48,006 nucleotides of DNA, taken from a virus (Duplodnaviria; Heunggongvirae; Uroviricota; Caudoviricetes). The notes under the pieces were generated by a model, which had not been told where the DNA came from, did not search any database, and saw nothing but the letters and a program-made list of their open reading frames with translations. Numbering within the stretch: position 1 is the first letter of the stretch; the number at the start of each line of letters is the position of its first letter. The stretch lies in IMG/VR virus record IMGVR_UViG_2913147268_000002. The stretch is one strand, 5' to 3'. Positions 17,496 to 23,106 of the stretch are shown one piece after another. The translations under genes were made by a program, and so were the position numbers.

Positions 17496-17719
17496 ATTGA
17501 CTTAGAAAAAGTCCGGGGCTATAGTTTCCGCGCAGCCGCAAAATCGGTTGCCGGGATTGGCGTCCCGGATATCTAAGTGACGCATAGCCGCGTTAGCGGT
17601 TTTTTTATGTGTTAGGCACGGCCACATTCGCATTATGGTGGGCTGTGTGGGGGCTTCTGTGGAAGCGCCGGGTTCACTTAGCCGGTTACGCCAACCCTGC
17701 ACAGCTCACCACCAGATGA

Positions 17720-18556
17720 TTGGCGTCGCTGGTGGTGATGAAAAAAACACTAAGTGAGGCCACTGCGATGACAGTCCAAATATCTGCGGAATCCCTTTCT
17801 CCGCTACATCATAACCAACTTCCCGTCATCACTACTGAATTGCTTGCCAGTTTGTATGGCACGGAAGTAAATGGTATCCAGCAAAACTTCAAGCGCAACA
17901 TCGCCAGATTTGTCGTAGGAAAGCATTTTTTTAAGCTGGAAGGTAATGAATTACGCGACTTCAAAAACAGACTGACAGATAGTCAGTCAGTTGCTAAACA
18001 TACCCGATCCCTCATTCTCTGGACAGAACGCGGCGCAGCTCGCCATGCCAAAATGCTGGAAACAGAACAGGCCTGGGAAGTTTTCGAAAAGCTGGAAGAT
18101 TGTTATTTTAGCCAGCGTCCAGAGAGGCGGAGTACAACTACCGATGACCGTACTCCCTTGCGTGATGCCGTTAATATACTGGTCGGCAAGAAAGGCATGA
18201 TGTATCCCGATGCCTACACCATGATTCATCAACGCTTCGCCGTCTCTCACATAGAACAACTGTCACAGACGCAAATGTTAGAGGCGATTGAATACATCCA
18301 CTGCCTGCTACTCGATGAAAATCACCCAACCATTCCAGATTTTTCTTTTATCACCACTATCAAAAATGGAAAAGTGACCGGGATGCGCCATGTTGCCAAA
18401 GGCGAACATCTGATGACCTTTGACGCTTTCAAAGAGATCGCTGAGCGGGCAGGGTATCTGGTGATCCACAGCGACAATCTGCGAAGTATGACACTGGATA
18501 AATTGATGGTAATGGGGAAAAAGTCGGCTATATCCGTTGCTAATTCAGCATTTTGA
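17720..18556 (+). CDS. ORF6N-domain protein, putative antirepressor
   Basis: N-terminal region LPVITTELLASLYGTEVNGIQQNFKRNIARF...LILWTERGAARHAKMLETEQAWEVFEKLED resembles the ORF6N/KilA-N-related domain of phage antirepressors; start uncertain (17720, 17738 or 17768). Confidence 0.6.
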   Translation: MASLVVMKKTLSEATAMTVQISAESLSPLHHNQLPVITTELLASLYGTEVNGIQQNFKRNIARFVVGKHFFKLEGNELRDFKNRLTDSQSVAKHTRSLILWTERGAARHAKMLETEQAWEVFEKLEDCYFSQRPERRSTTTDDRTPLRDAVNILVGKKGMMYPDAYTMIHQRFAVSHIEQLSQTQMLEAIEYIHCLLLDENHPTIPDFSFITTIKNGKVTGMRHVAKGEHLMTFDAFKEIAERAGYLVIHSDNLRSMTLDKLMVMGKKSAISVANSAF

Positions 18557-18584
18557 CAGGTTGTTTGGGGCGGAAATACTCTAT

Positions 18585-18662
18585 TTGCGCTTAAAAAGGT
18601 ATTTGACCACGACCAGCACGAGACCGAATACCTCTGTCAAAGTACCGCCCATATAAAACAGT
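18585..18662. repeat. Direct repeat copy 1 (about 78 bp, about 90% identical to 22006-22084)
   Basis: On the minus strand encodes MGGTLTEVFGLVLVVVKYLFKRK plus stop, a duplicate of the 3' end of the gene at 22003-22608. Confidence 0.85.
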
Positions 18663-18683
18663 TACATATGCACTTGATGACTA

Positions 18684-18715
18684 AGCTGGCACCAGGTTAA
18701 CACCTGGCGCCAGCT
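18684..18715 (-). terminator. Hairpin downstream of the lipoprotein gene
   Basis: 14-bp inverted repeat AGCTGGCACCAGGT / ACCTGGCGCCAGCT (one mismatch), loop TAAC; no clear U-tract. Confidence 0.4.
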
Positions 18716-18730
18716 TGAAGGAGACTTCAG

Positions 18731-19654
18731 TTATTGGTTTCTGAGGAAAGCGATTCTTGAAAGGGTCATTTGCGTCTGGCAGTCGACCATTTTCTTGACT
18801 TCAGCATCTGTTCCCTGCATTGAAACTTTACCGCACATAGCATCCTTAGTTTTGATCCACTGACGCTGAGAAGGCAGCAAATCTTTTTTCTTCGCCGGGG
18901 TTAACTTGCTCCAGACGGTACTCAAATCAGAGTCGGCATTCGCAAATGCCATTCGGGACTGATCAAGGTTGTCAGCTTTTTGCGGCTGAAGTTGTGCCTG
19001 TCTCTCTATTTGCTTCTCCGCCTCATACTTAGCCTGTTCTTGCGCCCTGAGTTGCACCTGTTGTTCCGCTTCAATTTGACTCTGTTGGGCATCCTTAGCC
19101 TGCTGGATTTTCTGCTGCTCAACGATCGGGGTGATAATGGAAAGCGATGTCAGTAAAGCGGCGCCCACTGATATCGGATTATCAGTAGAGGTTTTTACAA
19201 AAACGTTTTTCTGATCGTCGGTCGCCTGCACGGTGTAGGTGATACGTTTTGAAAAGGCGTTTGCGTTGTTCTCCAAAAACAGGCTTTCCATTTGCTTATC
19301 GAGATTACGATTAAAATTCTTTCTGTAAGCATCTGAAAGCTGGACGTACTCGTTCGCAGATAGAGTCATCGTCACGGTCCCTTCACAAGTTTTCATTGTG
19401 CTGCCCGTGTCACTTGATGTTGTGGAGATCTCAGAGATGGCTAGTTTGATCTTGTCCAGTGTGCTTCGTTTGGTCTGATTAGTGACATCAGGGTATTTAT
19501 CGACCTGTTCAGAGAGTCCTTCATAAGCAGATTTTTTTAATAAATCCATGAGAGCTGACTGGGTTATTTCCGAAGAACAACCGATCTCATCTTTTTTGTT
19601 ATCACAGCCTGTAAGGGCAATGGCGAGTAAGAGTACTGAGTATTTTAATCTCAT
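18731..19654 (-). CDS. Lipoprotein with C-terminal DUF1311 (LprI-like) domain
   Basis: Signal peptide plus lipobox (LLLAIALTGC); Gln/Glu-rich coiled region; C-terminus PSQRQWIKTKDAMCG...QMTLSRIAFL resembles DUF1311; RBS AAAGGGA. Confidence 0.7.
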   Translation of the reverse strand: MRLKYSVLLLAIALTGCDNKKDEIGCSSEITQSALMDLLKKSAYEGLSEQVDKYPDVTNQTKRSTLDKIKLAISEISTTSSDTGSTMKTCEGTVTMTLSANEYVQLSDAYRKNFNRNLDKQMESLFLENNANAFSKRITYTVQATDDQKNVFVKTSTDNPISVGAALLTSLSIITPIVEQQKIQQAKDAQQSQIEAEQQVQLRAQEQAKYEAEKQIERQAQLQPQKADNLDQSRMAFANADSDLSTVWSKLTPAKKKDLLPSQRQWIKTKDAMCGKVSMQGTDAEVKKMVDCQTQMTLSRIAFLRNQ

Positions 19655-20841
19655 GAATTCCCTTTAGAGTAAGGATTGGTTTTTAAGACGCGGTCTGTAA
19701 TCAGTCCCGAGAGCTACAGTAAACAACGCTGAGCACTGAACGCATCACAGGTAAGGTAAAAGGTGATATCGGCAAAGGCTGTGAAACCTTTAATTCAACA
19801 GATGGGAACGGTATGCGCAGGATCCTGTAACGACGCTCCCAAAACCGGAAACCTGTAAGGCATGTTTTCGCTGCTGAACTTAATATACGAACCTGCACTA
19901 TCATGAACATATTTTATATCGTTATACCCCGAGTGATTGTGCCCGGCAATGGATAGTGTCCTGGAGGAACTATTTCTACTGTAAAAGGTAGATATTTAAT
20001 TTCAGTTTTGAATTATTCCCTGCTGTTAATAACAATGGCTGTATATGGCACCGAGTAGGCATTTTTTCGCTTACTGAAGGGCAGCTGTGAGCGAGGAACA
20101 GACTTTCCCTACTTCGTTGAGAGTACACCTAGTACAATCAAGGCTAAATGATAAAAATATACAAAATATCATATTTATGATATATATAATGGCATTAATC
20201 TTATTCTTGGATTACGTTGAAAGGGTAATATTATATTTGTGTAACATAGTTTAGATAACAATGCCGTTATGGGGGGGGAAAGACATTTCAACATATTAGC
20301 TTTGTATCTAACGCTCATGTAGATCTCGATTTTGAACTTAAAGAACAATTATTTTTTAGAGAGCAAGGTATTTTTGGGGAACAAAAACATAAAGTAATGG
20401 AGAGAGGAGAATGTATCAAAAAATCATCGATTTAATTTAGATTGTCCGTATAGTTGGGGGTAAGTCGAATCGCTGGGCTACATGGAATATTGTGTCAAGT
20501 AAAAATATATTTCAATCTTGCAATAACCGATTGTTGAAAATAATGTCAAATCTTAATGGTGAATGGGGAGAATATAATAAACATGAGTCGATATTATGCA
20601 AATGGATTTAAATATTTTATACCCGAAGACATAGGGTTTCGAGAGTTCGATGAGACTACTTTGAATGCTTTCGAATTTGCTGGCTAAAACATATAGGTTA
20701 TATCTTACATCTGTTTGTAATGGAGCGTAGATGCGACAAGCTACACCATAATAATCATATTATGATATATTGTTAAGTTGTTATGGCATTAAATAAAATT
20801 ATGTCATTTTGTTAACCAAGCAAGAATCAAAGGACTTTTAG

Positions 20842-21540
20842 ATGGGTACGGCATTAATTTCAAGCTTTATTAGTGGTGCAATAGCTATAATCTCTATTGC
20901 TATATCTACTTATAATCAGAATAGAATAAACAAGCTCAATGAATCACTGGATGTAAGGAGAAAACATCAGTACTATATTGAACCGTTAATTCGCTCAGCT
21001 TCAGACTTACAAAGCCGTATTTATAATATATTAGAATTGGGGTTCATTGAAGAGTTTTATCATAATGGGAATAAGCGCCAACAAGATTATGTTATCAACA
21101 ATACTGTTTTTCTTTTTTCCCAGTTTTTTGCATGGACAGAAGCTGCCCGCATAGACATTCAATACCTTAGCCTAGAAAAAAATAAAAAAATGAGGGAGTT
21201 TATTAGATTACAGAACAATATTAACTCATTAATCCAAACAGACGTCTTTGGTCAGTATTTTATGTTTTTCATAGGAGAGCAGAGAGCTATTGCAGAAAAG
21301 ATGCTGATATCAACAGATACTGGATTTGATTGCATAGGTTACGGCAGTTTCACAAAGGAAAATTGCTTTATCAATGAGCCATTTTTTTTAGATTTAAACA
21401 ATGAAGTGATAAATATGACAAGAGATATCGGAATTTATAAAGAAAGGCTAATCAGAATACAGCACGCGTTAATCGATTTAATTAATTTTCTTGATCCTGG
21501 CATGATTCGATTTGACGGAAAAAAATATGGAAAAATATAA
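20842..21540 (+). CDS. Membrane-anchored hypothetical protein (232 aa) in AT-rich cargo island
   Basis: N-terminal TM helix (TALISSFISGAIAIISIAISTY) followed by a soluble domain with no family I recognise; RBS AAAGGA; own downstream 12-bp-stem hairpin. Confidence 0.65.
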   Translation: MGTALISSFISGAIAIISIAISTYNQNRINKLNESLDVRRKHQYYIEPLIRSASDLQSRIYNILELGFIEEFYHNGNKRQQDYVINNTVFLFSQFFAWTEAARIDIQYLSLEKNKKMREFIRLQNNINSLIQTDVFGQYFMFFIGEQRAIAEKMLISTDTGFDCIGYGSFTKENCFINEPFFLDLNNEVINMTRDIGIYKERLIRIQHALIDLINFLDPGMIRFDGKKYGKI

Positions 21541-21724
21541 CCCAGATGATTCGTATCAAGGTAAGTTGCTATATGTATCAATTTAATTATGGTTGGGTGA
21601 AATTTATGTTAATAGTAGCGGAGGGTTAGTTAAAATATGCTCTCAGTGATTTTTGGATAGTTCTTTTATTTATCATTGAAAGTAAATATGTATAGCTTCA
21701 AGATTTACAAGTGAATCTGTTTAT

Positions 21725-21758
21725 TGACAGTCCGCTTATGGCACAGAGCGGACTGTCA
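21725..21758 (+). terminator. Terminator-like hairpin after the 232-aa gene
   Basis: Perfect 12-bp stem TGACAGTCCGCT / AGCGGACTGTCA with a 10-nt loop, followed by T/A-rich sequence. Confidence 0.5.
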
Positions 21759-21956
21759 TATTAAATTTGGCTCCACGCCATAGATGTGTCAGCTCATATC
21801 TTATCTAATACACACAATAACTTTCTCATTCTTGGAGAATTATTTTTTTAAGGGTAGGTGTTGACGTTAGAGCAAAAGAATGGTGATTTTTTTGATGTGT
21901 ATTACGTTGGAACTGATGGGAATAACTATCTGTTTTCAACGCACTGCTAATTTATC

Positions 21957-21978
21957 AAGGCCCTTTGATCAGGGCCTT
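21957..21978 (-). terminator. Hairpin downstream of the gene at 22003-22608
   Basis: AAGGCCCT-TTGATC-AGGGCCTT; no U-tract. Confidence 0.35.
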
Positions 21979-22002
21979 CGAAAGACTGTTGGACCGAGAG
22001 AG

Positions 22003-22608
22003 TTACTTGCGTTTAAAAAGGTATTTTGTCACGACCAGCACGAGGCCGAATACCTCTGTCAAAGTACCGCCCATGTACAACTGTAGTGTTAAATCCTCAA
22101 ATTCCAGCTTACCTGCGCCGTCGGCAATAAATACACCATTCATTATCAGAAGTTGGAAAGCAAGGATAATCAGGAACCATTTCCCGTATCGTTTTTTTAG
22201 AGCGATTTCTGCTTCAAAATCTTTGTTGTTGAGTTGTTTGCGCTCATGCTCGGTATCAAGTGAATTCACCTGTTTCACAGATGTGAACTCGGTCAAGATT
22301 TTACTCTCAGTACGGGTGACTTGTTGAGAGGGTGTAGCAGTTGGAATTCTTTTGCTAGACGCAGCTACAGCCATTTTGCGAGCTTCGGCAGCTCTTTTTC
22401 TGGCTATTCCGCGAATACGGACAGCCGTTTTTTTGGGGGCGTGCGAAACCTTTGGCTGAGGTGAAGCTTCGTCAGGAGACTGAACCGGAGTTTCATCGTC
22501 CTCCGGCTCAACCTCTTCTGCTAACTGACGGTGTAGGTTGAGGGAATCCTTCAGTCTGCGTGCTACTTCCTGTTTGAAACGGCTGTTAAAATCGTCATCC
22601 GATGGCAT
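22003..22608 (-). CDS. Membrane protein (201 aa), charged N-terminal region and two C-terminal hydrophobic helices
   Basis: WFLIILAFQLLIMNGVFIA and GGTLTEVFGLVLVVTKYLF; starts 10 nt after the ImmA-like stop, so probably co-transcribed. Confidence 0.6.
   Translation of the reverse strand: MPSDDDFNSRFKQEVARRLKDSLNLHRQLAEEVEPEDDETPVQSPDEASPQPKVSHAPKKTAVRIRGIARKRAAEARKMAVAASSKRIPTATPSQQVTRTESKILTEFTSVKQVNSLDTEHERKQLNNKDFEAEIALKKRYGKWFLIILAFQLLIMNGVFIADGAGKLEFEDLTLQLYMGGTLTEVFGLVLVVTKYLFKRK
22006..22084. repeat. Direct repeat copy 2
   Basis: Matches 18585-18662; here it is the genuine 3' end of the 201-aa gene. Confidence 0.85.
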
Positions 22609-22617
22609 TTTAAAGCG

Positions 22618-23106
22618 TTACCCCAACCTCAAGTTCTTTAAACGATAAGTCATCGCATCGTCAGATACGCCAAAATAATGCGCCATTATATAACTTGGTT
22701 GACCGTCAGCGTGCAGTTTTCTGACCTCATCTACCGGCATCAGAAGTTCTGCTGCGAACTTGTTTGCAAAAATTTCATCAGGATGCGTTCCGGCGCTTGC
22801 GGTTTCGCCACGTAAATCAACGTACTCATATTCATCGCTATGCGATGCTTGCCGGGCGATGTAATGCCCCAACTCATGCCCACATGAAAAACGTTGACGA
22901 ACTTTGTTGTCATCACTGTTTAGAAAGATCGCTGGATCTTGATCTTTTTGTTTAATCAGTGCGCCAGAAACTTTCCCAGGAAGATCGGTAATAAAAACAT
23001 CTAATCCCATGTCGTGAGCAATTTTCGCTGGATCAACAGGGAAACCACGCCCGCACCAGAACGTGTCCAGCACTCGCCGGGCGTGCTCTCTTGGGTTGGT
23101 AGCCAT
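22618..23106 (-). CDS. ImmA/IrrE-family zinc metallopeptidase (COG2856-like)
   Basis: HEXXH in FSCGHELGHYI and downstream EIFANKFAAELLMP motif; strong RBS GGAGGA. Confidence 0.8.
   Translation of the reverse strand: MATNPREHARRVLDTFWCGRGFPVDPAKIAHDMGLDVFITDLPGKVSGALIKQKDQDPAIFLNSDDNKVRQRFSCGHELGHYIARQASHSDEYEYVDLRGETASAGTHPDEIFANKFAAELLMPVDEVRKLHADGQPSYIMAHYFGVSDDAMTYRLKNLRLG

Follow-up and report, generated by a model that had tools for sequence, protein, structure and literature searches.

The 48,006-nucleotide window (the whole stretch of viral DNA that was analyzed) derives from a prophage of E. coli ST131 whose head genes are lambda-like, whose tail genes are P2-like, and whose sole integrase is int at the tRNA-Leu end. 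The interval under study lies between an antirepressor-like gene and an operon encoding a tail-anchored membrane protein and a metallopeptidase (Table 1). Upstream of the antirepressor-like gene, the antisense-RNA module scored 80.4 bits for isrK, 75.2 bits for C4, and 52.9 bits for c4-a1b1 in Rfam. The hairpin between the first repeat copy and the LprI stop codon would be a probable bidirectional terminator. Both hallmarks of the LprI/DUF1311 family, a domain above the Pfam threshold and a lipoprotein signal, were found in the LprI gene product: PF07007 was matched at residues 225-304 with 30.8 bits against a cut-off of 22, and the translation contains the lipobox LLAIALTGC. Between the LprI gene and the 232-aa open reading frame (ORF) lies an ORF-poor stretch.

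According to the GC profile, the LprI gene has a GC content of 42-48%, like the rest of the prophage, while values of 31-36% were obtained for positions ~19900-22000; the content is 32% over 20000-21800 compared to 45-52% in the flanks. An earlier reading of the DNA, made from the sequence only, had described the entire interval as AT-rich, which is accurate for approximately 19900-22000 but not for the LprI gene.

Table 1. Features of the interval and its neighbours, in window coordinates.
Feature	Position	Strand	Evidence or remarks
c4/isrK antisense-RNA module	17519-17716	+	Rfam gathering-score matches; upstream of the ORF6N (Ant-type antirepressor) gene
ORF6N-domain antirepressor-like gene	17768-18556	+	Pfam ORF6N E=8.9e-22; RefSeq WP_001531776; left neighbour of the interval
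Repeat copy 1	18582-18662	-	Decaying orphan, 26 codons + stop, from the 3' end of a closely related 201-aa allele
Strong hairpin between copy 1 and LprI stop	18684-18715	.	DNA fold -17 kcal/mol, z = -5.1
LprI/DUF1311-family lipoprotein gene, 307 aa	18731-19654	-	Pfam PF07007; phrog_5094
Degenerate A-like hairpin remnant (weak call)	20037-20060	+	By eye; 14/24 match to A consensus
Hairpin B, left cassette boundary, hybrid form	20080-20103	+	GGCAGCTGTGAGCGAGGAACAGAC; 4 mismatches to B consensus
AT-rich single-gene cassette	20084-21812	+	Common to the Z/fun slot of P2-like phages
Cassette leader	20104-20841	+	No conserved ORF; small ORFs differ between window and P2-EC58
232-aa membrane-anchored helical protein	20842-21540	+	phrog_5606, labelled 'lysogenic protein'
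Hairpin A, right cassette boundary	21725-21758	+	Core 21730-21753, GTCCGCTTATGGCACAGAGCGGAC; 2 mismatches to A consensus
Conserved slot tail	21754-21914	+	First ~60 nt also present downstream of gene G in P2-like phages
201-aa tail-anchored membrane protein gene	22003-22608	-	phrog_5346; operon with ImmA
Repeat copy 2	22004-22084	-	Functional 3' end of the 201-aa gene; encodes the near-invariant C-terminal transmembrane helix
ImmA/IrrE (M78) metallopeptidase gene, CapP-like	22618-23106	-	Pfam E=7.7e-18; PADLOC capP E=2.4e-25

The direct repeat and deletion of the interval

The interval of approximately 3.4 kb is bracketed by an 81-nt direct repeat, the two copies of which start 3,422 nt apart and are identical at 72 of 81 positions (89%). 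A 68-nt core of the repeat gave a BLAST E value of ~2e-22, and no third copy was present in the 48-kb window. The sequence-only reading had estimated ~78 bp and ~90% identity, in good agreement with these measurements, and its identification of copy 2 as the genuine 3' end of the 201-aa gene was confirmed by coordinates and reading frame: copy 2 begins within the stop codon of that gene and spans its last 26 codons. Copy 1 sits 25 nt past the ORF6N stop codon and retains its in-frame stop. Since another in-frame stop codon lies directly upstream of its frame, copy 1 is an orphan of the 201-aa gene end, as had been proposed, with an extent of 26 rather than 23 codons. Five of the eight codons that differ between the copies are synonymous (counting the TAG/TAA stop), and copy 1 carries a frameshift in LD91-1, GF43, and APEC20/16; on the sequence evidence it is decaying independently in separate lineages. 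The identical 5.7-kb arrangement was found in approximately 400 independent complete genomes. The repeat is thus not an assembly artefact, a possibility that had been named as counting against the earlier reading.

Among 5,426 E. coli genomes, one (GPEC172) lacks precisely the 3,422 bp that separate the repeats. All six bases specific to copy 1 lie to the left of its junction and all four specific to copy 2 to the right, placing the crossover inside the longest identical block of 29 nt, and 2,366 nt of flanking sequence match the window at 100% identity. What results is a hybrid but intact 201-aa gene with a chimeric repeat and an ORF6N-to-201-aa junction. The 81-nt repeats thus served homologous recombination that deleted the whole interval in one instance, seen in a single assembly, and the earlier suggestion that they could mediate loss is borne out by this chimeric junction. 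A junction of the ORF6N and 201-aa genes had also been suggested as the mark of an empty site; the one in GPEC172 is a derived deletion and not the ancestral state. As the hybrid gene is intact, loss of the interval was probably neutral for the ImmA/201-aa operon. The event resembles known deletion by homologous recombination between short, diverged direct repeats (minimal processing segment) in its crossover within the longest identity, precise loss, and chimeric repeat, and is unusual only in its intact hybrid gene product.

The cassette slot and its boundary hairpins

The same flanks with different cargo were found in M21816, 22KM0354, LD91-1, GF43, APEC20/16, L133, and ECO21. Relatives match the window from 17500 to approximately 20055-20097 and again from 21726 or 21981 onward, and differ between, so that the cargo hotspot put forward from the sequence only, with the antirepressor/replication genes on one side and the Q/lysis block on the other, holds. 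In L133, copy 1 and the last 122 nt of the LprI gene are kept and homology restarts exactly at 21730, in hairpin A. Copy 1 and the LprI gene co-occur in L003, L004, L005, L009, and L010, and are kept in every lineage retaining the ORF6N-LprI block, at 1-4.6% backbone divergence and with any cargo. As judged from these alignments, the LprI gene is conserved prophage backbone, separate from the swappable cargo, which is limited to approximately 20080-21812. Compared with what is expected of a moron or hotspot, replaceable cargo is present, and base composition is atypical for the cassette but not for the LprI gene.

The cassette is 86% identical over 1.74 kb, cargo gene and leader included, to the Z-region of P2-EC58 (AJ512683), a record whose reference is Nilsson, Karlsson and Haggard-Ljungquist (Mol Biol Evol 2004). 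The same identity was observed to a P2-like prophage in which the cassette lies between the tail sheath gene FI and the tail-fibre assembly gene G. A second cassette, L133_c1, likewise occurs in both the ST131-type hotspot and the P2 context. The P2-EC58 record annotates left and right inverted repeats around Z-region ORF1, as well as -35, -10, and RBS signals in the homologous leader. The leader of the window presumably carries a promoter; in a consensus promoter scan, sites were no commoner than in shuffled sequence. P2-EC58 shares with the window the 24-nt hairpins, the ~60-nt right tail, and an AT-rich single-gene slot. It differs in that the slot described here is located in the early region of another backbone, between ant/LprI and ImmA/201-aa, rather than at the Z/fun location between tail genes G and FI. 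Furthermore, the left hairpin of the window is a hybrid, relatives of the window carry multi-cassette arrays, and the slot is nested in an unrelated 81-nt repeat, which the P2-like phages sharing the cassette lack. A tail element of ~80 nt was detected in 1,786 of the 5,426 E. coli genomes.

The slot lies between the LprI and 201-aa genes and is bounded by two inverted 24-nt hairpins, with B at its left end and A at its right; reverse-complementing A gives B except at two loop positions. Up to hairpin A the sequence is cargo-specific, and beyond it the sequence is conserved. Hairpin A folds with -17.5 kcal/mol (z = -6.3) and was picked up by a terminator-like scan. Hairpin B of the window does not fold (z = -0.3). 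Its outer arm and loop match the backbone as found in M21816, identity to which stops at 20097, while its inner arm matches the P2-EC58 cassette. The A-like remnant, which was missed by a scan allowing five mismatches, keeps the loop TGGCAC and lies 19 nt upstream of hairpin B. The hairpins probably double as terminators or insulators.

A set of 231 viral loci holds 217 B and 207 A hairpins; as the loci were gathered by exact hairpin cores, these counts are biased toward canonical hairpins. The hairpins are co-oriented in all but 2 of the 135 loci with at least two. From B to A the median distance is 1,581 nt; from A to B, 45 of 58 distances fall within 9-27 nt, the mode being 18 nt. Arrays read B-cargo-A, ~18 nt, B-cargo-A, the longest being ABABABA, and the slots of the window's relatives hold up to three cassettes in series with this spacing. 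No empty slot was found in the 5,426 E. coli genomes. In total, the hairpin-bounded slots of the 231 loci occupy 38 backbone contexts and hold approximately 80 cargo clusters, of which many are known defence genes. Among the cargo of 78 cassette types are PD-T7-1, PD-T7-5, AriA, LmuB, PtuA, and GajA, along with DarT, TIR, HEPN, GmrSD, and RT proteins. The inner hairpin arms are conserved on ~80 unrelated cargos, an observation that is awkward for simple homologous recombination. Covariation in the stems is weak (~80% Watson-Crick pairs with few compensatory changes) in a set that was itself chosen by palindromic consensus.

Variable, defence-rich cargo of AT-rich foreign DNA at a fixed position in related phages is also characteristic of the phage and satellite anti-phage hotspots of Rousset et al. 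2022 (PMC9122126) and of morons generally. The P2 hotspot of that study adjoins cos, boundary hairpins are unmentioned there, and the recombination at cos ends on which its authors speculate cannot apply to the present slot.

Origin of the interval and exchange of its cargo

Taken together, the interval is probably a composite of two ages in an ST131 prophage hotspot, consisting of an old joint and an ongoing cassette slot. In the older layer, a recombination joint would have set the LprI gene, the cargo slot, and a closely related ImmA/201-aa operon allele beside ant (ORF6N), leaving the terminal 81 nt of the resident 201-aa allele behind as the orphan copy 1. This origin is a reconstruction, no genome in the pre-rearrangement state having been found. 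In the younger layer, cassettes would most likely be swapped by ordinary or phage-recombinase-assisted homologous recombination, with the hairpins and short tails offering the sole homology between otherwise unrelated DNA.

The sequence-only reading had instead proposed that the LprI gene, the AT-rich DNA, and the 232-aa gene entered the 3' end of the 201-aa gene in one event, as a two-gene moron. The repeats do bracket both genes, and the whole interval can be lost as a unit. However, the LprI gene has a backbone-like GC content and persists with copy 1 while the cargo varies, and the 232-aa cassette stands alone in P2-like phages with other boundaries. The divergence of the repeats (11%, with a synonymous bias) is moreover a poor fit to a target-site duplication. 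A single insertion is thus very unlikely, being largely refuted by the alignments of relatives and the homology in L133: the LprI gene and copy 1 are conserved, and the cassette is a separate unit with 24-nt hairpins as boundaries.

Some phages target the 3' ends of tRNA genes or icd, and the 81-nt repeats could in principle be attL and attR scars of an element targeting the 3' end of the 201-aa gene, GPEC172 then representing excision by an integrase. The C-terminal 29 aa of the 201-aa protein family are almost invariant, and relatives from Klebsiella and E. coli have a convergent int-DUF4224 module 24-35 nt beyond the end of the ImmA/TM pair. On the other hand, the ECL27977 prophage is bounded by 62-nt tRNA-Ser repeats with the gene pair inside, and its copy of the gene end is the only one. 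At the DNA level, divergent alleles do not resemble the 81-mer; conservation of the C terminus is therefore confined to the protein, and no integrase adjoins either repeat in the window. With att repeats at tRNA-Ser in the comparator and no DNA conservation of the gene end in distant alleles, this explanation is considered refuted and is highly improbable.

For the cassettes themselves, the alternative to homologous recombination is that the hairpins are sites of a dedicated structure- or site-specific system, analogous to integron attC and served in trans by a host or phage enzyme encoded elsewhere; a circular cassette would then have the A, ~18 nt, B junction as its attC-like site. Consistent with such a system, ~80 unrelated cargos and 38 backbones carry the 24-nt element with its 10-nt loop conserved, A and B stand at a rigid spacing, a single long hairpin can form from the A-spacer-B junction (z = -5.2), and the hybrid hairpin B of the window switches between loop and inner arm. 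Site-specific recombination was also proposed for the P2 Z-region in the title of Nilsson et al. 2004. Against it, no recombinase is consistently tied to the slots: neither the window nor the P2 loci have an integrase near the slot, and a 200-aa tyrosine recombinase occurs in the cargo of M21816 only. Circular intermediates and empty sites were not seen, and breakpoints can be bounded but not fixed to one nucleotide. The cassettes do resemble those of integrons in their serial arrays, unrelated single- or few-gene content, short imperfect palindromes, and recurrence of a given cassette in different carriers. Unlike integrons, they lack IntI, attI, and Pc, are not known to form circular intermediates, and each carry their own leader; the evenly spaced, palindromic junctions are without the R/L core motifs of attC, and the slot is not a member of the integron family. 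A dedicated system is accordingly regarded as unlikely. It is only tentatively suggested that the hairpins and the A-~18 nt-B junction constitute a new integrase-less cassette system moving defence genes between unrelated phages, which would make it the integron's counterpart in phages. Equally speculative is the extension that this system is common to P2-like phages, lambdoid prophages, and other enterobacterial mobile elements, the ST131 island being one occupied slot.

Cargo functions and relevance to ST131

Among extraintestinal E. coli, the pandemic ST131 is the dominant multidrug-resistant clone, and the prophage described here is nearly fixed in it. Its island combines a conserved lipoprotein gene with a plug-in slot, the boundary hairpins of which also bound defence-gene cassettes in P2-like and lambdoid phages. 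This provides a testable picture of how anti-phage and lysogenic-conversion cargo would move between unrelated phages, and were the hairpins true recombination sites, they would represent a new gene-capture system. In enterobacterial genomes, the hairpins additionally provide a simple sequence tag by which cargo slots, and hence new defence candidates like the 232-aa protein, can be located. The LprI protein may be a periplasmic exclusion or protection factor of the lysozyme-inhibitor type.

The 232-aa protein has a hydrophobic helix at its N terminus and was modelled by AlphaFold2 with a pLDDT of 86; fold searches with the predicted structure returned no significant match. Assignment as a DRT-associated transmembrane protein was rejected, as the PADLOC RTasTM match is weak (E=1.8e-5, 22 bits) and no reverse transcriptase lies beside the gene in the window or in the contexts of its homologues. 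By association and the weak HMM match, the protein would probably be an anti-phage or superinfection-exclusion effector; its distant homologues adjoin SIR2-HerA and toxin-antitoxin genes.

Backbone and cargo of the interval

Approximately 400 complete E. coli genomes were 100% identical to the 5.7 kb around the interval, and these belong essentially to the ST131 clone (EC958, JJ1886, and others). In EC958 the prophage is integrated beside tRNA-Leu, near pgsA/uvrC. The interval lies between replication/antirepressor genes on one side and the Q/lysis block on the other. The prophage (the whole window, locus L002) is a hybrid: its packaging and head genes (terminase, gpW, portal, S49 protease, decoration protein, major capsid protein, and FI) are lambda-like, and its baseplate, tail-fibre, and sheath genes are P2-like.

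The sequence-only reading had treated the interval as a single AT-rich, two-gene moron. Its contents are as described, namely a lipoprotein gene (Pfam LprI/DUF1311, lipobox LTGC), an ORF-poor stretch, and a 232-aa ORF. The AT-richness holds for approximately 19900-22000 only (31-36% GC), whereas the LprI gene is of ordinary composition. In relatives with the same flanks, homology to the window extended to approximately 20055-20097 and resumed from 21726 or 21981, with unrelated cargo between, including GIY-YIG and HNH nucleases, an ETEC_3214-family protein, a 200-aa tyrosine recombinase, a methyltransferase, a SMEK protein, and others. In the relative L133, copy 1 of the flanking repeat was retained together with just the final 122 nt of LprI. 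Three cassettes come next, and homology to the window restarted exactly at 21730. These shared limits indicate that LprI and copy 1 belong to an older backbone and that the current cargo is confined to approximately 20080-21812; the interval is thus two things rather than one moron. LprI homologues (84% and approximately 92% identity; loci L033 and L261) were found in other phage backbones, either next to hairpin arrays, though on their opposite side, or directly after replication genes without an ORF6N gene. LprI may once have been a cassette itself.

Features of the interval and its surroundings, in window coordinates
Feature	Position	Strand	Description
immI-like module	17519-17716		complete, P1-type: c4 antisense RNA, a1/b1 targets, isrK; directly upstream of ORF6N gene
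Repeat copy 1	18582-18662		81 nt; begins 25 nt past ORF6N stop
LprI gene	18731-19654	-	lipoprotein
CRISPR spacer match	19623-19654		LprI 5' end; spacer found in many genomes
Hairpin B	20080-20103		left boundary; 24 nt, 7-bp stem, 10-nt loop; consensus approximately GTCCGCTGTGAGCGAGGAGCGGAC
232-aa protein gene	20842-21540	+	
Hairpin A	21730-21753		right boundary; 24 nt, 7-bp stem, 10-nt loop; consensus approximately GTCCGCTCCTGGCACAGAGCGGAC; window stem extended to 12 bp
ImmA/TM module	22003-23106		two-gene module
201-aa protein gene	22003-22608	-	membrane protein
Repeat copy 2	22004-22084		81 nt; last 26 codons plus stop of 201-aa gene
CRISPR spacer match	22020-22052		repeat copy 2; spacer of strain 23CRST027
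ImmA gene	22618-23106	-	
CRISPR spacer match	22866-22900		ImmA gene; spacer of strain JX21CE8

The 81-nt repeats and a deletion between them

The direct repeats are real, with 89% identity that is far beyond chance, and no third copy was present within the window. As proposed from the sequence, copy 2 is the true 3' end of the 201-aa gene and copy 1 is an orphan end, severed by an upstream stop codon. Of the eight codons that differ between the copies, five are synonymous when the TAG/TAA stop is counted, and in one other codon every base differs. Furthermore, copy 1 carries a frameshifting 1-nt deletion in three lineages. Together, the codon differences and deletions indicate that copy 1 is what is left, in decaying form, of a closely related allele that was once functional, and not a fresh duplication. 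Copy 1 could encode a 23-aa hydrophobic peptide, but a functional ORF was rejected, as it lacks a ribosome-binding site and is frameshifted in those lineages.

Across the 201-aa protein family the last approximately 29 residues (LTLQLYMGGTLTEVFGLVLVVTKYLFKRK) are almost invariant and the remainder is 41-52% identical. The gene end is conserved at the protein level only, divergent alleles having no DNA similarity to the 81-mer. Since a convergent integrase gene adjoins the ImmA/TM pair in some relatives, the repeats were tested as att scars. This reading was rejected: the comparator prophage has 62-nt tRNA-Ser att repeats of its own that enclose the gene pair, the gene end occurs there only once, and its DNA sequence shows no conservation. 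The ImmA (M78, CapP-like) and tail-anchored TM protein genes are themselves a mobile two-gene module (loci L254-L260). In other prophages the pair is located between attL and int rather than mid-genome, and the N-terminal part of the TM protein varies in sequence and length (130-239 aa).

A synthetic query joining ORF6N, one repeat, and the 201-aa gene was searched against 5,426 E. coli genomes, and exactly one, GPEC172, contained this arrangement. Its single repeat is a clean chimera whose left part has all six bases specific to copy 1 and whose right part has all four specific to copy 2, which places the crossover within a 29-nt block, the longest uninterrupted identity. The product is an intact hybrid gene ending …LVVVKYLFKRK. 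By itself this junction also fits a Campbell-type integration, and the direction was decided by phylogenetic nesting. Over 2,366 nt of flanking sequence GPEC172 is 100% identical to the ST131 window, and every lineage that is 1-4.6% diverged has retained LprI and the two repeats. The 3,422-bp deletion in GPEC172 is therefore precise and derived. A junction of this type had been anticipated as the ancestral empty site, an interpretation rejected on the same grounds, while the suggestion that the repeats could mediate loss of the island is borne out.

Hairpin-bounded cassette slots

Window positions 20084-21812 shared 86% identity with the P2-EC58 phage Z-region (AJ512683), where the depositors annotated left and right inverted repeats. 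The cassette was equally similar to a copy in a P2-like prophage, located between the tail sheath gene FI and the tail-fibre assembly gene G. The boundaries are two hairpins that are inverted copies of one element: when reverse-complemented, A matches B at all but two positions, both in the loop. Hairpin A of the window folds strongly (z = -6.3) with a terminator-like score. Hairpin B of the window combines an outer arm and loop of the backbone type (as in M21816) with an inner arm of the P2-EC58 cassette type, and this hybrid has lost its folding. A conserved tail of approximately 60 nt follows A and is common to the region downstream of P2 gene G; the P2 version holds an inverted copy of the A loop. 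No Rfam family matched the hairpins or the cassette leader, and the 740-nt leader contained no conserved small ORF common to the window and P2-EC58 versions. Stem covariation among the hairpins was weak, with too few compensatory changes, in a sample that was itself selected on the consensus. A sigma-54 promoter in the A loop (TGGCAC) was rejected, as the -12 element is absent as judged by eye.

Exact core matches to A and to B were each found in at least 120 viral contigs. Strict re-scoring gave 217 B and 207 A hairpins in 231 loci, which comprised 38 backbone clusters and approximately 80 cargo clusters. All these counts are biased, the loci having been gathered through the hairpin sequence. 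Hairpins were co-oriented throughout in all but two of the 135 loci with at least two hairpins. The B-to-A distance had a median of 1,581 nt, while A-to-B was 9-27 nt in 45 of 58 cases (mode 18 nt), and the longest arrays were ABABABA. In P2-type loci, B lies approximately 193 nt from FI and A approximately 68-91 nt from the G stop; the hairpins also occur in lambdoid replication-to-Q regions, in islands next to an integrase, in a UmuDC/resolvase context, and in further backbones. A second cassette is common to the ST131-type slot and P2. Many known defence components were among the cargo proteins, namely PD-T7-1, PD-T7-5, AriA, AbiLi, LmuB, PtuA, GajA, NsnB, DarT, TIR, HEPN, GmrSD, and RT. 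The cargo of M21816 in the same slot includes, inside the hairpin array, a 200-aa tyrosine recombinase with a catalytic domain only (L003:9663-10265), similar in size to FimB/FimE; no other recombinase was seen inside a slot.

The A-plus-tail element of approximately 80 nt was present in 1,786 of 5,426 E. coli genomes. No empty cassette slot was found in these 5,426 genomes, and the candidate H257 was rejected because its arrangement is different. In ATCC 11303 (L011:4001-4081), as in many E. coli genomes, a copy lies in the core chromosome between gltD and nanQ; a 101-aa 'transposase' ORF beside it had no Pfam domain and provided no lead. An A-type element (74% identity over approximately 85 nt) also occurs in at least 24 records of Stx1a- and Stx2c-converting phages (L012:3741-3838), approximately 3.75 kb from the left end, which probably marks a related slot near their integrase end.

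The analysis establishes the slot architecture, the cassettes in common, the hybrid hairpin B, and one deletion through the repeats; that cassettes are exchanged by recombination at the hairpins is inferred. Homologous or phage-recombinase-assisted recombination is favoured, because otherwise unrelated DNA shares homology at the hairpins and tails alone and the slots have no consistently linked recombinase. The loop and inner arms are conserved whatever the cargo and the 18-nt junction is rigid, which supports a dedicated hairpin-recognising system as a rival means of moving the cassettes; we consider this rival unlikely, and it is equally unlikely that a new cassette-capture system is marked by the hairpins. 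Under the favoured homologous exchange, the hairpins would double as terminators or insulators.

There is precedent for morons, for prophage hotspots, and for repeat-mediated deletion, and sequence records of 2002-2004 already contain the inverted repeats that flank P2 Z-region cargo. The P2 hotspot of Rousset 2022 (PMC9122126) is a different locus from the hairpin slot. The hairpin sequences were not found printed in the literature searched, within which the same slot at a non-P2 position in the ST131 prophage, regular A-18-B arrays, the spread of the slot over many backbones, and its nesting inside an unrelated 81-nt scar all appear undescribed.

Predicted functions and prophage biology

The 232-aa protein (phrog_5606) has no Pfam domain and at least 290 homologues. 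Its model is confident (pLDDT 86) and places a helical bundle after an N-terminal transmembrane helix, and fold searches with it returned no informative match. A weak match to a PADLOC reverse-transcriptase-associated TM protein (E=1.8e-5) was observed with no RT nearby. A Providencia homologue adjoins a Caudo_TAP gene (tail-fibre assembly) within a cluster of P2-like genes, and distant homologues have SIR2-HerA and toxin-antitoxin genes as neighbours. A role in defence or exclusion can reasonably be inferred, nothing more. For LprI, established knowledge of T4 Spackle suggests that predicted lysozyme inhibition might serve superinfection exclusion.

The c4/isrK module upstream of the ORF6N gene indicates that this gene is an Ant-type antirepressor and implies its antisense control in the window prophage. 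Type I-E CRISPR spacers of other E. coli strains were 100% identical to three window sites, the match in the ImmA gene being based only on a 35-nt exact match under CRISPR annotation. Prophages of this family are thus naturally targeted by CRISPR.
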